DNA from: Candidatus Zambryskibacteria bacterium CG10_big_fil_rev_8_21_14_0_10_42_12
Lineage (GTDB): Bacteria; Patescibacteriota; Minisyncoccia; Phycocordibacterales; 1-14-0-10-42-12
NCBI GenBank assembly: GCA_002787695.1
Contig: PCXL01000011.1
Location: 138,250-202,249, forward strand
Direction of reading: 5' to 3'
Length of the DNA: 64,000 bases
The notes beneath the pieces were generated by a model. That model saw only the letters and a list, made by a program, of their open reading frames with translations, did no database searches and was not told where the DNA came from. The position numbers were made by a program, and so were the translations under genes. Positions 51,959 through 59,311 of this stretch are shown here, in pieces (the stretch's first letter is position 1; every line of letters starts with the position of its first letter).

Positions 51959-54106
51959 ATGGCAGACTCGAACATTTTCAATTTGGTCTCTGAATTTAAG
52001 CCTTCTGGAGATCAGCCGCAGGCTATAAAGGCTCTGACAGAAGGTGTTAAATCTGGTCTCAAACACCAGACGCTGTTGGGTGTGACCGGGTCGGGTAAAA
52101 CATTTACGGCGGCAAACGTGATTCAAAATATTGGCAAACCGACTCTTGTTATTGCACATAATAAAACACTCGCCGCGCAGCTCGCTCAAGAATACAAAGA
52201 ATTTTTCCCTGAAAACGCAGTGCATTATTTTGTCTCTTATTATGACTATTATCAGCCGGAGGCCTATATGCCGGTTACTGATACATATATCGAAAAAGAA
52301 GCGATGATCAATGAGGAGATTGAGCGCCTTCGTCATGCGACAACGCAAGCACTCCTTACAAGACAAGACTGTATTATTGTCGCGTCTGTTTCGTGTATCT
52401 ATGGTTTGGGTTCTCCTATTGAATACGAAAAAGTAAATATGCGGATTGAGGTCGGACAAGCAATTTCTCGTAATGACTTTGCACGAAAGCTCATTGATAT
52501 TTTTTATAAACGAACGAATGCCGACCTCACACCAGGAGAATTTCGCGCGCTTGGAAATACGGTTGAGATTATGCCGGTATCAGAGAAAATCGTGTATCGC
52601 ATAGAATTTGCCGGAAATAATATAGAACATATTACAATAATCGATGCGATTACAAGAAGTGTGTACGAAGATAATGTGCCATCCTTCTTCCTTTTTCCTG
52701 CAAAGCACTTTGTGACGCCGGAAAACGAAATAAAGCGTGCAATAAAAAGTATTAAAGAAGAACTTGCTGATAGGCTTGCGGTTTTAGAAAAAGAAGGAAA
52801 GATCTTGGAGGCTGAACGACTCAAACGTCGGACAAACTATGATCTCGCCATGATCAAAGAAGTTGGATATACAAATGGTATTGAAAATTATTCTCGCCAT
52901 TTTGATAACAGAGCTCCTGGTGAACCACCTTATACACTCCTTTCATATTTTCCACATAAATCGGATGGGAGTCCGGATTTCCTCACCATCATTGATGAAT
53001 CGCACGTCACTATTCCGCAACTCGGTGGCATGTATGCGGGGGATCAGTCTCGTAAACAAAATTTGGTAGATCACGGATTCCGTCTGCCGAGTGCCCGAGA
53101 TAACAGACCTCTTAACTTTGAAGAAGTTGAAGAGAGGCTAGGACAGCGGATTTATACGAGTGCTACACCTGGAGAATATGAGAAAGAACATTCAAAGGAT
53201 CCGGCAGGGCAAGCCCGCCTGTCAGCGCCTGAAGGCTTAGTCGATGGCGGACAGGTCGTGGAACAAGTTATTCGTCCGACAGGACTGATTGATCCGCCTA
53301 TTTTTGTGCGCGGTGTTGTAGAGAGTGGTCCGTATAAAGGTCAGATTCAAGATTTCATAAAAGAGACAGTTGAGGTAGTAAAAGGGGATGGACGAGTAAT
53401 CGCAACGACGCTCACCAAGAAAATGGCAGAAGATCTCTCTGAATATTTGAAAGAGAAAAAAATAAAAGCAGAGTATCTACACAGCGACATTAAAACCATT
53501 GAGCGTATTGAGATTTTGACCGATTTTCGCCGTGGAAAGTTTGATTGTTTGGTTGGCGTGAATCTCCTTCGAGAAGGCCTCGATCTTCCCGAGGTTGAAT
53601 TTATTGGCATTCTGGATGCAGACAAAGAAGGATTTTTGAGGAGTGAGACGTCACTTATTCAAATCATTGGTCGAGCGGCGCGAAATATAAAGGGGCGCGT
53701 AGTTCTCTATGCCGACAACATAACCGGTTCAATGGAGAGGGCAATTGGCGAGACGAATCGTCGCAGAGATATTCAGATTGCGTATAACAAAAAACATAAT
53801 ATTACGCCGAAGACAATTATCAAGAAAATTGCCGATATCACCGAGCACATGAAAAGTGATCATGATAAGGCGGTCGCGGCAGATCTCAAGCGTGATGAAA
53901 AAATCTATAAGAAAAATCCAGAAAAACTGATTCGCATCAAAGAGAAACAAATGAATGCGTCAGTGAAAATCTTGGACTTCGAAACGGCAGCGCTCTTGCG
54001 TGATGAAATTACAGTGATAATGCAAAAACTAAAACAAGAGGAAAAAGAAAGTAATAAAGTGATAAAACAGGAGAAGGAAAGGAGTCAAAAAAGGAATACT
54101 CTGTAA
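51959..54106 (+). CDS. uvrB: Excinuclease ABC subunit B
   Basis: GVTGSGKTFT Walker A, DESH, helicase motifs, and a C-terminal UVR domain (ETAALLRDEITVIMQKLKQ). Confidence 0.95.
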   Translation: MADSNIFNLVSEFKPSGDQPQAIKALTEGVKSGLKHQTLLGVTGSGKTFTAANVIQNIGKPTLVIAHNKTLAAQLAQEYKEFFPENAVHYFVSYYDYYQPEAYMPVTDTYIEKEAMINEEIERLRHATTQALLTRQDCIIVASVSCIYGLGSPIEYEKVNMRIEVGQAISRNDFARKLIDIFYKRTNADLTPGEFRALGNTVEIMPVSEKIVYRIEFAGNNIEHITIIDAITRSVYEDNVPSFFLFPAKHFVTPENEIKRAIKSIKEELADRLAVLEKEGKILEAERLKRRTNYDLAMIKEVGYTNGIENYSRHFDNRAPGEPPYTLLSYFPHKSDGSPDFLTIIDESHVTIPQLGGMYAGDQSRKQNLVDHGFRLPSARDNRPLNFEEVEERLGQRIYTSATPGEYEKEHSKDPAGQARLSAPEGLVDGGQVVEQVIRPTGLIDPPIFVRGVVESGPYKGQIQDFIKETVEVVKGDGRVIATTLTKKMAEDLSEYLKEKKIKAEYLHSDIKTIERIEILTDFRRGKFDCLVGVNLLREGLDLPEVEFIGILDADKEGFLRSETSLIQIIGRAARNIKGRVVLYADNITGSMERAIGETNRRRDIQIAYNKKHNITPKTIIKKIADITEHMKSDHDKAVAADLKRDEKIYKKNPEKLIRIKEKQMNASVKILDFETAALLRDEITVIMQKLKQEEKESNKVIKQEKERSQKRNTL

Positions 54107-54293: not shown

Positions 54294-56906
54294 ATGACAC
54301 CTAATAAAAAGAAAGAAGAAAACGAGGATAAAATTATCGTAAAAGGTGCTCGCACACACAATCTAAAAGACATTACGGTAGAAATGCCTCGAAATAAAAT
54401 GGTGGTGTTTACCGGACTTTCCGGAAGTGGAAAGTCGTCTTTGGCATTTGACACTATTTTTGCCGAAGGGCAACGGCGCTATGTTGAGTCACTTTCTTCT
54501 TATGCTCGTCAGTTTTTGCGACAAATGCAAAAACCAGATGTAGATGAAATCGTGGGACTTTCTCCTGCTATTTCTATTGATCAAAAATCTCGATCAAACA
54601 ACCCTCGATCTACAGTGGCAACCATCACTGAAATTCATGATTATCTTCGTGTGCTCTATGCGCGTATAGGGAAGCCTCATTGTTTAGTGTGTGGACGTGA
54701 AATAGAGCGACTTTCAACAGATGAAATCAGAAAGTTTATTGTAGAGCGGATTGAAAAAGTTTCTAAGGACGTGGCGGCTAAAAAAACTCTTCTCCCTACA
54801 TACATTGAACTATGGGCACCTGTCGTACGTGGACGCAAAGGTGAATATTATCAATTACTCTATGACCTTTTGGGTTCTGGATATACAGAAGTGATGGTGG
54901 ACGGGGTGCGCAAAAAACTGCGTGAGCAAATCACGCTTTCAAAAACTAAACGACATGATATTGATGTGCTTATCGATGCGATCAGTATTGAGGAATGGCA
55001 AGAAGACAAAAAAAGTGCCGGAGAGCGTCTTGTTGAATCACTTGAAAAATCAATGGAAGAATCAGAAGGGCTCGTACGGATTGTCATAAACGAAATGACT
55101 CGCCAGAAGGAAAAAGAGTATGTGCCAGAGAGTTTTGTCATGTCGTCAAAATTCTCTTGTCCGCATGATGGCTTTTCTTTCCCTGAAATAGAGCCTCGCC
55201 TCTTCTCATTCAACTCTCCATATGGCGCATGTCCAGAATGTAATGGGCTTGGTACGAAGTATTTCTTTGGTGATGAAAAATGTCCTGTGTGTGATGGTGC
55301 GCGACTTCGTCCTGAGGCGCTCAAGGTACTTATTGGCGGGAAAAATATAGTGGAGTTTGCATCTCTTTCCATTAAGGATGCATATGACTTTTTCGTAGAA
55401 CTCGACCTTTCAAAAAGAGATCAGGAAATTTCAAAGGTTGTTGTGAAAGAAATCACATCACGACTGGAGTTTATGTTGAACGTCGGTATTGAGTATCTTT
55501 CGCTCGACAGGCGCGCCCATACACTTTCAGGTGGTGAGGCTCAGCGTATCAGGCTTGCCAGTCAGCTTGGCTCAGGGCTCGTAGGAGCGCTCTACGTGCT
55601 CGATGAACCAACGATTGGTCTTCACTCTCGTGATAACGATAGACTTATTGAAACGCTGCTACATCTGCGTGACTTAGGAAATACGATTATTGTGGTTGAG
55701 CACGATGAAGATACTATTTATGCATCAGACTATATTGTCGATATTGGACCTGGTGCAGGTGTACACGGAGGAGAAGTTGTAGTTTCTGGGTGGCTTGATG
55801 AACTGCTTTCAAAAAAGAAATTAGAGAAAGGTGAAGAATCACTTACTCTTGAATACCTCCGTAAAGAAAAAGAAGTTCCTATCCCAGACGAACGAAGAAT
55901 GCAAGATAAAGGATCACTCAAAATAAAAGGGGGTAAGGTGTTTAATATTCAAAATATGAACATAGACGTACCGCTCAGCCGTTTTGTTTCTGTGACGGGT
56001 GTGTCGGGATCCGGTAAGTCTTCGTTTGTGTACGAGATTCTCTACAAAAACTTACAGGCACGATTTGAGAAAAAATATCGTTCAAATGATGTGTACAATT
56101 GTTCAAGTTTTACCGGGACTGAATATATCAGTCGTTCTATCTTGATCGATCAGTCGCCGATCGGGAGAACGCCACGCAGTAACCCGGCGACATACACGGG
56201 TTCGTGGACCTATATCAGGCAACTGTTTGCAGAGACTAGTGAAGCGCGTGTGCGTGGTTGGGGACCTGGAAGATTCTCATTTAATACCAAAGGCGGTCGT
56301 TGTGAGACGTGTCAGGGCAATGGAGAGATTGCCGTTGAAATGCATTTTTTGCCAACGGTGTATGTGCCGTGTGATGTATGTAACGGAAAACGATTTACCA
56401 AAGATACACTTGAGGTTAAATATAAAAAGAAAAATATCTTTGAAGTTTTGAAGATGACTGTCGAAGAAGCCGTTACATTCTTCGAAGACATTCCTGCTAT
56501 TTATGACAGACTCAAAACACTTGAGGAAGTGGGTCTCGGCTATCTAGAGCTCGGTCAATCAGCAACCACACTCTCTGGTGGTGAGGCACAACGTGTGAAG
56601 ATCTCTTCAGAGCTCTATAGACCACACATGCAAAAGACTTTGTATATTCTCGATGAACCGTCTATCGGTCTTCATTATGAAGACGTACGGAAATTGATTG
56701 AGATTCTTGATCGTCTCGTACAAAAAGGCAACTCGGTCATCGTGATCGAGCACAATATGGATATTATAAAAAGTTCGGACTATGTGATCGACATTGGACC
56801 AGAAGGTGGTGAAGGTGGTGGAAAAATTGTAGCAAAGGGTACTCCAGAAGAAGTAGCTAACAATAAAAATTCTTATACAGGGCAGTATTTAAAGAAAATT
56901 TTATAA
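54294..56906 (+). CDS. uvrA: Excinuclease ABC subunit A (compact, 870 aa)
   Basis: Two ABC modules ([12 protein letters not shown]; [11 protein letters not shown]; two LSGGE signatures), zinc-finger cysteine clusters, and DEPTIGLH / DEPSIGLH. Confidence 0.9.
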
Positions 56907-56928
56907 ACGAGAAACAGCCAACTCATTT

Positions 56929-57273
56929 TCACAAGTTGGCCGTTGTGTAGATTTTCACTATCCGTAGAGGTGATTCACAGGGAAGGGGGAAGTGCTTGAC
57001 TTGTTCCCCGACAAACTCTTCGATTCGTATGAGAGCTTTCTCCTCCATGAGATTGCTGAGTATCCGATCGAACGATCTTTTGTCGGCTTCCTCAAATAAA
57101 TCATAGGGACGATTTGTCCAGGTCAGCCGTGCACCCAATCTGCCCGCCCTGTGTACTGCCGTCACCACGGTGTTTTCACCGAGATACACGAGAAAGTAAA
57201 GATTGACCTTCTTGCGCATCACTAAGTACCACAACCGTAGATCTTGAAGTTTGCGTAGTATAAGAGATAGCAT
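56929..57273 (-). CDS. Hypothetical 114-aa protein (the N-terminal 120 codons of the ORF track call are probably spurious)
   Basis: A minus-strand intrinsic terminator at 57313-57357 lies inside the 234-aa ORF track call. The Met at 57273 is preceded by AAGGAG. No recognised domain. Confidence 0.3.
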   Translation of the reverse strand: MLSLILRKLQDLRLWYLVMRKKVNLYFLVYLGENTVVTAVHRAGRLGARLTWTNRPYDLFEEADKRSFDRILSNLMEEKALIRIEEFVGEQVKHFPLPCESPLRIVKIYTTANL

Positions 57274-57312
57274 ACCTCTCTTTCTCCTTTGTACAGACTG
57301 TTCCACATTGTA

Positions 57313-57357
57313 ACAAAAAACAAGCCGGCGCGGAGTTTCGGGCAACTCCGGCCGGTT
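57313..57357 (-). terminator. Intrinsic terminator (minus strand) located upstream of the 56929-57273 gene; terminator/attenuator of a ~360-nt GC-rich minus-strand RNA
   Basis: Minus strand reads accggccggag-ttgcccgaaa-ctccgcgccggc followed by UUGUUUUUUGUU. Confidence 0.55.
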
Positions 57358-57723
57358 AGGAGCAAACTTACTCTCCAGATGTGTTAGTTTGGTCCTTATC
57401 TTTTGGGGGTGCTGGGTGAGAAGGCACCACCTGTATTTCCCTTTGAACAGTAATTGGTCGTGGCCGACTGGATCGCGCGACCAGATCAGGATCTGTGTCA
57501 GAGGGGGGTTGTGGTACGCCAGCTGTTCCGATGAAGTACATTTTCTATCCTCCCGAAGTGTCAGGGGTCCAAGGAAAGATGATAACATATTTTTTAAATG
57601 AATGGATGCCGGATCGTCCGAGCTGGCACCCACCTTTGTGCCTCCTTGGGCGCTTTAGCACCCAGCCATTCCGCGCTGAATCGTGCGCAAGAATGAGTCT
57701 TCTTGTTTTGATGTTTCGGGCAT

Positions 57724-59061
57724 ATGTCACCTACCTGTATTGATTTATATCATTTTTTGTTTTATTGTCAATATGTGCACACTGCTCAATTTAAAAAAAT
57801 AACAGCAAATTTACCAGATACTCCTGGTGTTTATTTTTTCATTGGCTCGCCGAAACAACGTGAAGGCGGCTCGGGGAAAAACTTGTCTACAGAGTCATCT
57901 AAAATCCTCTATATCGGCAAAGCAACGTCTCTCAAGAGTCGTGTTAAAAGTTATTTTGCTTCTGATCTATTTGAGCGTCGCGGGCCAAAGATAGTCAAAA
58001 TGATTGAAGAGGCACATGATGTTACGTTTGAAAAAACAGAGTCTGCACTTGAGGCGATGATTTTAGAAGCGGTTCTTATCAAAAAACACAAGCCGCTCTA
58101 TAACACGCTTGGCATTGATGACAAGAGCTACCAGTATGTGGTGATAACTGATGAAGAGTTTCCGCGTGTTGTGCTCGTGCGTGCAAATGATCTCATGCAG
58201 GCTGAAATGGGTGCCTATGAATTGCCGTACAAAATTAAAAAGAAATTTGGACCGTATCCTTACGGATCTTCGCTTAAAGAGGCACTTCGTATTATTCGGA
58301 AAATTTTTCCATTTCGTGATGAAAAAGCAGTAATCGCACACAATGAACGTTTTTATCGAACACTAGGGTTGTCTCCAAACATTGATGGTGCGGAAGCAAA
58401 AAAAACATATGCAAGAACTATTCGTCACATCATCTTGTTTTTTGAAGGTAAAAAGAAAACGTTGATAAAAGAGCTTGAGCGAGAGATGAAAAGTTTGGCG
58501 CGTGAGCAAAAATTTGAAGAAGCAGAGAGAGCAAAACATACCATGTTTGCTCTTACACATATTCGTGATATTTCACTCATAAAACGAGATTTTTATGCAG
58601 ACGAGACACGCACACAAACTGGTTTCAGGATCGAGGCATACGACATTGCGCATACTGCAGGTAAAGACGTTGTCGGGGTCATGACCGTGCTTGTTGACGG
58701 TGAGCCGGACAAAGGTCAATACAGAAAATTTAATATAAAGGGTGGTACGGGAAATAACGACGTGGCGGCGCTTAAAGAAATTTTAAACAGGCGCCTGGAA
58801 CGAACTGAGTGGCCAATGCCAAAACTTATTGTGGTAGATGGTGGAAAACCGCAGATGAATGCGGCAGAAGATGTACTAGAAAAAGCGGGTGTGCAGATAC
58901 CAGTTGTATGTGTGACAAAGGATGAATTTCATCGACCGAGAACTATTGGCGGTTCAAAAGAAGTGATAAAAAATCAAGAAGACGATATTATTTTTGCAAA
59001 CGCAGAAGCGCACCGATTCGCACTCGCATTTCATAAAAATAAAAGAGGAAAAATAAAATAA
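57724..59061 (+). CDS. uvrC: Excinuclease ABC subunit C (short form: GIY-YIG + UVR + RNase-H-like endonuclease, no HhH)
   Basis: GIY-YIG (PGVYFF...ILYIGKATSLKSRVKSYF...E), a UVR domain (MKSLAREQKFEEAERAKHTMFALTHI), and the endonuclease motif EAYDIAHTAG. The exact start is uncertain. Confidence 0.8.
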   Translation: MSPTCIDLYHFLFYCQYVHTAQFKKITANLPDTPGVYFFIGSPKQREGGSGKNLSTESSKILYIGKATSLKSRVKSYFASDLFERRGPKIVKMIEEAHDVTFEKTESALEAMILEAVLIKKHKPLYNTLGIDDKSYQYVVITDEEFPRVVLVRANDLMQAEMGAYELPYKIKKKFGPYPYGSSLKEALRIIRKIFPFRDEKAVIAHNERFYRTLGLSPNIDGAEAKKTYARTIRHIILFFEGKKKTLIKELEREMKSLAREQKFEEAERAKHTMFALTHIRDISLIKRDFYADETRTQTGFRIEAYDIAHTAGKDVVGVMTVLVDGEPDKGQYRKFNIKGGTGNNDVAALKEILNRRLERTEWPMPKLIVVDGGKPQMNAAEDVLEKAGVQIPVVCVTKDEFHRPRTIGGSKEVIKNQEDDIIFANAEAHRFALAFHKNKRGKIK

Positions 59062-59311
59062 AACATAAGGCGCCGCACGACTAACTTCACGGGGAGGTGT
59101 GAAATACTAATCGTGCGGCGCTGCCTCTCGGTCTCCGACACGCGCCGGGCGCGAGAGCGAAGGAGGAGGAACCAAGAGGCGAACTAAAATCTGCTAACAT
59201 AGATGATATATACATGTACCACAGATTTCAATTGATTTTTTTACTATTTTATTTTATAAAAGATAATCTTCCACATCACGAAAATTGTTCAAGTGATATA
59301 TAATAAAGCAT

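Follow-up and report, generated by a model that had tools for sequence, protein, structure and literature searches.

What is encoded in the 868-bp spacer (56907-57774) that separates uvrA from uvrC in Candidatus Zambryskibacteria bacterium CG10_big_fil_rev_8_21_14_0_10_42_12? The locus lies in a 64,000-nt stretch of contig PCXL01000011.1 (assembly GCA_002787695.1, positions 138,250 to 202,249 of the forward strand), hereafter the window, whose coordinates are used throughout. Gene calling offers a single 234-aa minus-strand open reading frame (ORF), whereas an initial annotation made from the letters proposed a GC-rich RNA of about 360 nt that ends in an intrinsic terminator immediately upstream of a separate 114-aa gene, in a layout resembling a riboswitch or attenuator. 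Our analysis points, with a probability of roughly 60%, to a different content: three tiny tandem minus-strand genes, separately promoted and terminated and limited to a small Zambryskibacteria group, and no riboswitch or attenuator. The arrangement as such is ordinary, in an understudied lineage.

In the proposed scheme (Table 1), a first promoter (P1) would drive a 22-codon ORF (sORF1) into a weak hairpin without a U-run (T1). A second (P2) would drive a transcript of about 260 nt carrying a 57-codon proline-rich ORF (sORF3), led by the Shine-Dalgarno (SD) sequence GGGAGGA, and the terminator T2 would form the 3′ end of both units. A third promoter (P3) would start a leader of about 26 nt with AAGGAG, followed by the 114-aa gene, and this unit would end at a terminator (T3) against the uvrA end.

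A conserved terminator and predicted promoter ahead of the 114-aa gene

The minus-strand sequence CCGGCCGGAGUU-GCCCGA-AACUCCG(C)GCCGG, followed by a C and UUGUUUUUUGUU, forms a stable G+C-rich hairpin directly joined to a U-run, as expected of an intrinsic (Rho-independent) terminator (T2). It folds at −23.3 kcal/mol compared with −12.4 ± 2.3 in shuffled sequences (z = −4.7), an energy that 0 of 200 shuffles equalled; a one-base bulge accounts for its being overlooked by a simple pattern scan. Relatives were represented by 12 public contigs that carry either a UvrC at 52-74% identity or the small-gene family described below, and only one of them, L085, is colinear with the upstream segment of the window. 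In L085, T2 retains about 90% identity although the UvrC of that relative reaches only 72% and the body of the neighbouring ORF is unalignable, and a hairpin kept so well against such a background is more than a chance fold. An assembly or sequencing error in the hairpin, which the initial annotation had named as a possible pitfall, is unlikely since an independent Logan assembly (L081) matches the window identically across 7,353 bp. The terminator is located inside the 234-aa ORF as originally noted, and it marks the predicted 3′ end of a transcription unit at about 57312, where termination would be expected to be efficient.

P3 lies right behind this terminator. All six loci in which a terminator precedes the family gene (6/6) carry TGnTAnAnT at this place, as TGTTACAAT in the window, L085, L082 and L089, as TGGTAGAAT in L083 and as TGATACACT in L084. 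The terminators in front of it fall into four unrelated sequence groups (window/L085, L082/L089, L083 and L084), and the retention of P3 across four independent upstream contexts argues that the 114-aa gene has its own predicted promoter. Elsewhere in the window TGnTAhAAT occurs at 13 sites, six of them in the intergenic 12.5% of the sequence and two more at ORF starts, a concentration indicating that such motifs mark promoters in this genome. Both P3 and P2 have the form of a sigma-70 extended −10 promoter (TGn plus TAnnnT at the right distance, conserved in relatives) and would be expected to fire.

The leader motif AGTCnGTACA(n1-2)GGAG behind P3 is conserved in the window and in L082, L084, L085 and L089 (5/6 loci). 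The AAGGAG and the Met codon at 57273 reported in the initial annotation are in place, and the 114-aa ORF is, as proposed there, a separate gene beginning at this codon. With T2 as the end of the two upstream units and P3 as the promoter of the third, T2 would insulate the 114-aa gene from upstream transcription rather than regulate it. At the other end, T3 directly adjoins the uvrA stop codon (56904-56906), the two genes being convergent.

A small protein family beside uvrA

An 89-101-aa minus-strand gene adjoins the uvrA end in L082, L083, L084, L085 and L089 and aligns with the 114-aa product of the window. The short contig L090 has a family gene next to an unidentified convergent ORF, and L093 a truncated member. 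The family counts seven known members, namely six from databases (P0121-P0126) and that of the window. A profile of the former aligns to the window protein in hhalign with E = 1.3e-4 and 27% identity over 73 columns, at a probability of only 53%; this similarity, which extends over most of the domain, suggests membership. Position and leader point the same way: every member whose flanks are long enough sits in the uvrA-uvrC spacer, opposite in strand to both genes, and four share the leader motif with the window.

Single-sequence searches with the 114-aa protein returned no match, and the family has none in Pfam, NCBIfam, PADLOC or PHROG. A defence or phage protein was considered and set aside on the PADLOC and PHROG results. 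The AlphaFold2 model (predicted local distance difference test score of 72.5) shows a small alpha+beta fold, for which the structural neighbours were not informative. At the N-terminus, the members in the window and in L093 (1-186, minus strand) have an additional amphipathic helix of 18-30 residues that contains Trp (MLSLILRKLQDLRLWYLV... and MKRFRLIWRSVRNRGWAILEALL..., respectively) and is missing from the others; AlphaFold2 places this helix at residues 2-19.

Two proposed small units upstream of the terminator

The upstream segment of about 425 nt is a composite of P1, sORF1, a weak hairpin, P2 and sORF3. P1 and the uvrC promoter, together with the uvrC start codon (GTG 57775), are arranged back-to-back. 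Its block, AATAAAAYAAAAAnTGrTATAAATCAA, is conserved in L082, L083, L085, L086, L089, L090 and L093, and the family gene has no other promoter ahead of it in L090 and L093. The stop codon of sORF1 is found in the loop of a small hairpin (57664-57647). In L085 the counterpart (MADEPKQPQDPFRRMMAQGMAGC*) differs by an in-frame 3-nt indel and has an identical stop, and a hand codon alignment of the two gives one synonymous change versus about twelve amino-acid changes; coding by sORF1 is therefore not demonstrated, and its conservation may be at the RNA level. The tail of T1 is A-rich, not U-rich, so that T1 is a weak or leaky stop and part of the P1 transcription probably reads on past it. The AAGGAGG, GTG and T1 together align loosely with an element of L085 made of an SD, a mini-ORF and a hairpin, and may be what was left after deletion of the mini-ORF body.

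P2 is a 22-nt island kept in L085 (TGCTATCATCTTTCCTCGGACC) within otherwise unalignable sequence, and it is single-copy in the window. The ORF behind it, sORF3, encodes a proline-rich hydrophilic peptide, with its SD 6 nt before the ATG and its stop 12 nt ahead of the T2 hairpin. ORFs filling the transcript recur at the equivalent place, with 57 codons in the window, 55 in L085 (behind a conserved SD), 65 in L082, 84 in L089 and 62 in L084, lengths beyond the expectation from 1,000 dinucleotide shuffles per locus (P = 0.036, 0.031, 0.009, 0.005 and 0.025, respectively); three of the five have good SDs.

A codon log-odds model trained on 27 long genes of the window gives gene-like scores of 0.12-0.25 per codon to the upstream ORFs of the relatives. 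Over the sORF3 bases, the sORF3 frame is the best of the three (+0.054), ahead of the frame of the 234-aa ORF (−0.35) and the third frame (−0.80). The family gene itself scores only about 0, which makes the model weak for these G+C-rich genes. On balance we regard the upstream ORFs as probable small-protein mRNAs, sORF3 being the one that would be translated in the window, with a non-coding function also conceivable. Searches of PHROGs yielded a single, non-significant match, for the 57-aa ORF (E = 0.27). Homology among the upstream peptides, all of them proline-rich and hydrophilic, was also pursued, and weak tblastn hits (E 0.008-0.045, obtained with a tiny database and no composition correction) vanished under composition-adjusted BLASTP. 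Plus-strand ORFs of 70 and 82 aa in the same segment were discarded, having no Pfam match and no conservation in L085.

Of the RNA of about 360 nt in the initial annotation, its 3′ end survives as a real terminator near 57312. The single structured RNA does not, given an internal extended −10, two SD-led ORFs and conservation confined to signal blocks. The GC-richness stated there is seen across the spacer, with a G+C fraction of 0.45-0.52 versus about 0.36-0.44 across most of the flanking uvrA/uvrC sequence.

Table 1. Features of the uvrA-uvrC spacer and its surroundings (window coordinates; promoters, terminators and ORFs are predictions).
Feature	Coordinates	Strand	Description
uvrB	51959-54106	+	
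uvrA	54294-56906	+	
Terminator T3 of the 114-aa gene	56905-56944	−	14-bp stem and UUUCUCGUUU; −19 kcal/mol, z = −5.1
114-aa gene	56929-57273	−	clade-restricted family of 89-114-aa proteins; SD AAGGAG 57289-57284, ATG 57273
234-aa ORF (219 aa in public assemblies)	56929-57633	−	crosses P2, sORF3 (in another frame), T2 and P3
Leader of the 114-aa gene	57274-57300	−	conserved box AGTCTGTACAAAGGAG 57299-57284, SD included; single-copy in the window
Promoter P3	57307-57315	−	extended −10 TGTTACAAT, overlapping the T2 U-run; predicted start near 57300
Terminator T2	57312-57355	−	12-bp G+C-rich stem with one bulge (57355-57325); U-run 57323-57312
sORF3 and its SD	57368-57554	−	SD GGGAGGA 57554-57548; ORF 57541-57368, 57 codons and TAA
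Promoter P2	57566-57587	−	extended −10 TGTTATCAT 57587-57579 and conserved start region CTTTCCTTGGACC; predicted start near 57572
SD/GTG/hairpin T1 element	57601-57647	−	AAGGAGG 57647-57641; GTG 57633; T1 57634-57601, −15.8 kcal/mol
sORF1	57655-57723	−	22 codons and TAA (MPETSKQEDSFLRTIQRGMAGC*)
Promoter P1	57744-57771	−	TTGACA 57771-57766, 16-nt spacer, TG 57752-57751, TATAAA 57749-57744; predicted start near 57737
uvrC (start taken at GTG 57775)	57775-59061	+	
uvrC 3′ element	59066-59185	+	G+C-rich, right after the uvrC stop, between uvrC and ddl

Turnover between P1 and the family gene

The content between P1 and the family gene changes from relative to relative. The gene stands directly under P1 in L090 and L093, with nothing between, and behind a leader of about 25 nt and a terminator in L083. 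In L082 and L089 the interval holds a proline-rich ORF of 65 or 84 codons, followed by a mini-ORF element and a terminator; in L084 it holds an unrelated 62-codon ORF and a terminator, and in L085 an arrangement colinear with that of the window. At the nucleotide level the window segment resembles only L085, and there in short signal blocks; no similarity to L082, L089 or L084 was found. On the 5′ side the shared islands are the P1 block, sORF1 (most of all GGAATGGCyGGGTGCTAA at its 3′ end), AGGAGG, which resembles an SD, and TGyTATCATCTTTCCTyGGACC. On the 3′ side they comprise CGGGAG, the SD of the following ORF, then the terminator, TTTTGTTACAAT and, in the leader, AGTCyGTACAAAGGAG. A single pattern scan of metagenomes with the P1 block returned just two chance matches, both in an extremely A+T-rich, eukaryote-like contig, and the comparison thus covers about a dozen loci.

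The mini-ORF belongs to an element of about 90 nt present in L082 (3520-3612, minus strand), L085 (1858-1952, minus strand) and L089 (378-486, plus strand) and absent from the window. Its parts are a perfect SD (AGGAGGUGA), a 12-13-codon ORF reading (M/I)AALKKS(P/T)I..L*, a hairpin holding the UAG and then a terminator-like hairpin. The UAG hairpin differs in sequence in each genome and the terminator-like hairpin shows some compensatory changes; the Leu and Lys codons of the mini-ORF differ synonymously, and its AUG is AUA in L089. A ribosome-dependent attenuator is a possible function for this element.

A small minus-strand gene occurs at this place in every relative in which uvrA and uvrC flank the spacer or the contig reaches into the region immediately ahead of uvrC (L001, L082-L087, L089, L090, L093 and L094); in L002 and L088 other genes are found in the interval or upstream. 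The description of an antisense-oriented unit within the uvr cluster as unusual is hence not borne out. In the more distant Patescibacteria L001 (5669-5950), L086 (2-169), L087 (730-930) and L094 (1-175), the genes opposite uvrC are unrelated and of about 50-93 aa, at the same divergent promoter position. The site upstream of uvrC appears to be a general hot spot for small orphan genes. Mobile or foreign DNA was also considered for the window segment and rejected: terminal repeats do not exceed chance, the window holds no second copy, and neither blastn against phages and plasmids nor a viral-contig scan returned anything.

Protein-coding units, regulatory RNA or one long gene

Several observations weigh against reading the spacer as three small genes. 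The sORF3 score lies between the in-frame and out-of-frame distributions, the peptides it would encode in the window and in L085 do not detectably resemble each other, and significant homology is lacking among all five upstream peptides; the interiors of the upstream ORFs could be neutral spacer. P2 and sORF1 come from a comparison of two sequences, window and L085, which makes the evidence for P2 thinner than that for P3, and the starts assigned to P1, P2 and P3 are unmapped predictions from sequence. The transcript from P1 to T2 (57740-57300) folds better than shuffles (z = −3.3, largely due to the terminator hairpin), as does the stretch from P2 to T2 (z = −2.7). Finally, the 120 codons upstream of 57273 in the frame of the 234-aa ORF are open (P = 0.008 in 5,000 shuffles), and three differences from L085 in the P2 block, read from the alignment, are all synonymous in that frame.

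Part of these observations would suit one or more non-coding small RNAs (sRNAs), the transcript of about 260 nt from P2 to T2 and/or that from P1 to T2 acting as RNA, with the 5′ end CUUUCCUYGGACC and the terminator as functional parts and the ORFs untranslated. We consider this unlikely, although it is the best of the alternatives. The window and L085 share only the 5′ block and the terminator and not the body, a pattern typical of trans-acting sRNAs, and the better-than-shuffled folding from P2 to T2, the G+C-richness of the stretch within an A+T-rich genome and the absence of peptide conservation would fit as well. However, transcript-filling ORFs with SDs recur in five loci beyond shuffle expectation and the sORF3 frame scores best of the three. 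An sRNA seed was sought in the conserved 5′ block of P2, which pairs with the ribosome binding site of the 114-aa gene no better than shuffled sequence.

Rfam 15 gave no match at E ≤ 1 in 56000-59000, T-box included, and none at gathering score in the window; the T-box-like fragment reported in the initial annotation is a short chance resemblance. Restricting the search to 57290-57760 (470 nt) returned one match at E ≤ 10, an irrelevant sRNA (E = 2.1). These searches exclude RNase P, 6S, SRP and all other Rfam families, and ARAGORN found no tmRNA or tRNA. The alternative terminator and antiterminator folds that the initial annotation proposed to look for did not appear: when the transcript is folded up to the T2 5′ arm, that arm is unpaired or weakly and inconsistently paired both in the window and in L085, and conservation is lacking immediately ahead of T2. 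Nor did the relatives show an aptamer-like conserved structure ahead of the family gene, the segment being absent from L083, L090 and L093 and replaced in L082, L084 and L089.

These results bear on a second alternative, closest to the initial annotation, in which P1 would be the true promoter of the 114-aa gene, the P1-T2 segment a cis-acting leader and T2 a conditional terminator responding to a ligand or to translation of the short ORFs. P1-driven expression is probably ancestral, judging from L090 and L093, where the family gene lies directly under P1. The layout also recalls a leader peptide, as SD-led ORFs (sORF1, sORF3 and the mini-ORF of relatives) precede the terminator: a perfect SD (AGGAGGTGA) leads the (M/I)AALKKS... 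ORF in L082, L085 and L089, with its UAG in a hairpin just before the terminator, and in the window the sORF1 stop occupies a hairpin loop and sORF3 ends close to T2. It is mainly this mini-ORF element of the sister genomes and the direct drive from P1 in two relatives that leave the proposal some residual probability. Yet neither antiterminator, aptamer nor Rfam family was found, regulatory codon runs are absent, and the mini-ORF has been lost from the window. The spacing of the sORF3 stop and T2 is not conserved either, measuring 12 nt in the window but about 25 nt in L085. The leader differs or is missing from one relative to the next while the downstream gene and P3 are kept. We thus judge a riboswitch or attenuator improbable. 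About as improbable is a bolder variant in which the P1-T2 segments would be fast-evolving ribosome-sensing cassettes (of the AGGAGGTGA-(M/I)AALKKS type) gating P1 into the small gene, or the P2-T2 stretch a new sRNA of the Candidate Phyla Radiation (CPR). Were that long shot true, the locus would harbor a regulatory RNA class not represented in Rfam.

As to the 234-aa ORF, no homologue but itself turned up among 1.84 billion representatives, and none for its N-terminal 120 codons. The codon score of this part is −0.22, like out-of-frame sequence, and in each of the four relatives compared (L085, L082, L084 and L089) the frame contains 2-9 stops. In agreement with the initial annotation, which did not take it as one gene, we judge it to be an ORF-calling artefact, an accidentally open frame. 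Translation from GTG 57633 following the RNA polymerase through T2 is very improbable despite the open 120 codons, a good SD (AAGGAGG) 7 nt ahead of the GTG and an sORF1 in the same frame, as such a protein would have no relatives for its N-terminal half, would be coded with out-of-frame-like codons (also over the sORF3 region), would be interrupted in all four relatives and would have to cross a strong conserved terminator and two conserved promoter blocks. The minus-strand frame is open from the sORF1 ATG (57723) to 56929 save for one TAA (57657-57655), which is also present in L085; the open 120-codon stretch in the sORF1 frame, otherwise unexplained, is treated here as a coincidence.

Features of uvrC

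The public uvrC call (445 aa, from ATG 57724, also the start in the ORF list) is probably 17 codons too long. UvrC family profiles match only from about residue 21-28, and in relatives UvrC begins at the site corresponding to GTG 57775. The plus-strand sequence TTGATT-17 nt-TATTGT stops 6 nt short of this GTG, a geometry repeated in L082 and L083. Given this promoter-like sequence so close to the start codon and no SD, the uvrC mRNA may be leaderless.

The G+C-rich element after the uvrC stop has counterparts in L083 (3972-4085), L093 (1480-1610), L082 (5122-5250) and L085 (3326-3460). Its hairpin, which has a GGGGAGG/GGGGAUG loop, lies within a long outer stem (GGCGCCGCACGA...UCGUGCGGCGCU), and, as judged by eye, both stems stay paired through differing sequences in the five genomes (inner stem CAC/GUG, CUCUC/GAGAG, UCUCC/GGAGA and CUGCC/GGCAG; outer stem GCACGA/UCGUGC versus AACCUC/GAGGUU). 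It has no U-run and no Rfam family (best RtT, E = 0.34). The element may represent a terminator of an unconventional kind or else a new structured motif of the uvrC 3′ untranslated region (UTR) or ddl 5′ UTR, and it looks more RNA-like than the P1-T2 segment does.

Implications and comparison with known systems

The locus bears on no long-standing open question, and its immediate value is for annotation. Public calls would fuse two or three small units into a hypothetical protein of 219/234 aa across a terminator and two promoters, and probably begin uvrC 17 codons too early. The uvrA-uvrC spacer of this Zambryskibacteria clade would further be a fixed site of turnover of small G+C- and proline-rich ORF cassettes before a conserved small gene. 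Should the upstream ORFs be translated, their products could be small proteins of recent origin or very rapid evolution, within a CPR genome that is reduced.

Among known arrangements, the closest are tandem units in which the U-run of a terminator overlaps the next extended −10 (TGnTATAAT). Here too a hairpin and U-run close an ORF, TGn-TAnAAT follows a few bases on and an SD and start codon 17-33 nt further, and the layout is repeated before the homologous gene in sister genomes. The putative units here differ in being known only from sequence and in their scale: with 22, 57 and 114 codons they are unusually short, and all three are packed into the spacer between two nucleotide-excision-repair genes.

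With leader-peptide attenuators (trp, pyrBI) the locus shares a short SD-led ORF upstream of a pre-gene terminator and, in L082, L085 and L089, a mini-ORF stop in a hairpin beside the terminator. In contrast to them, it has no antiterminator hairpin, regulatory codon run or leader conservation, and an independent predicted promoter is kept after the terminator. Similarly, a long G+C-rich 5′ stretch ending in a terminator ahead of a gene recalls the T-box and terminator-controlling riboswitches, but no covariance model matches, neither a conserved aptamer nor an antiterminator is present, the stretch holds a predicted promoter and ORFs, and the gene that follows encodes no synthetase, transporter or biosynthetic enzyme. 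The 55-84-codon SD-led ORFs, without homologues and swapped between close relatives at a fixed position, are reminiscent of the orphan small-protein genes of intergenic hot spots; unlike these, they are consistently G+C- and proline-rich in a genome of 40% G+C, their translation is putative, and each is bracketed by promoter-like and terminator signals.

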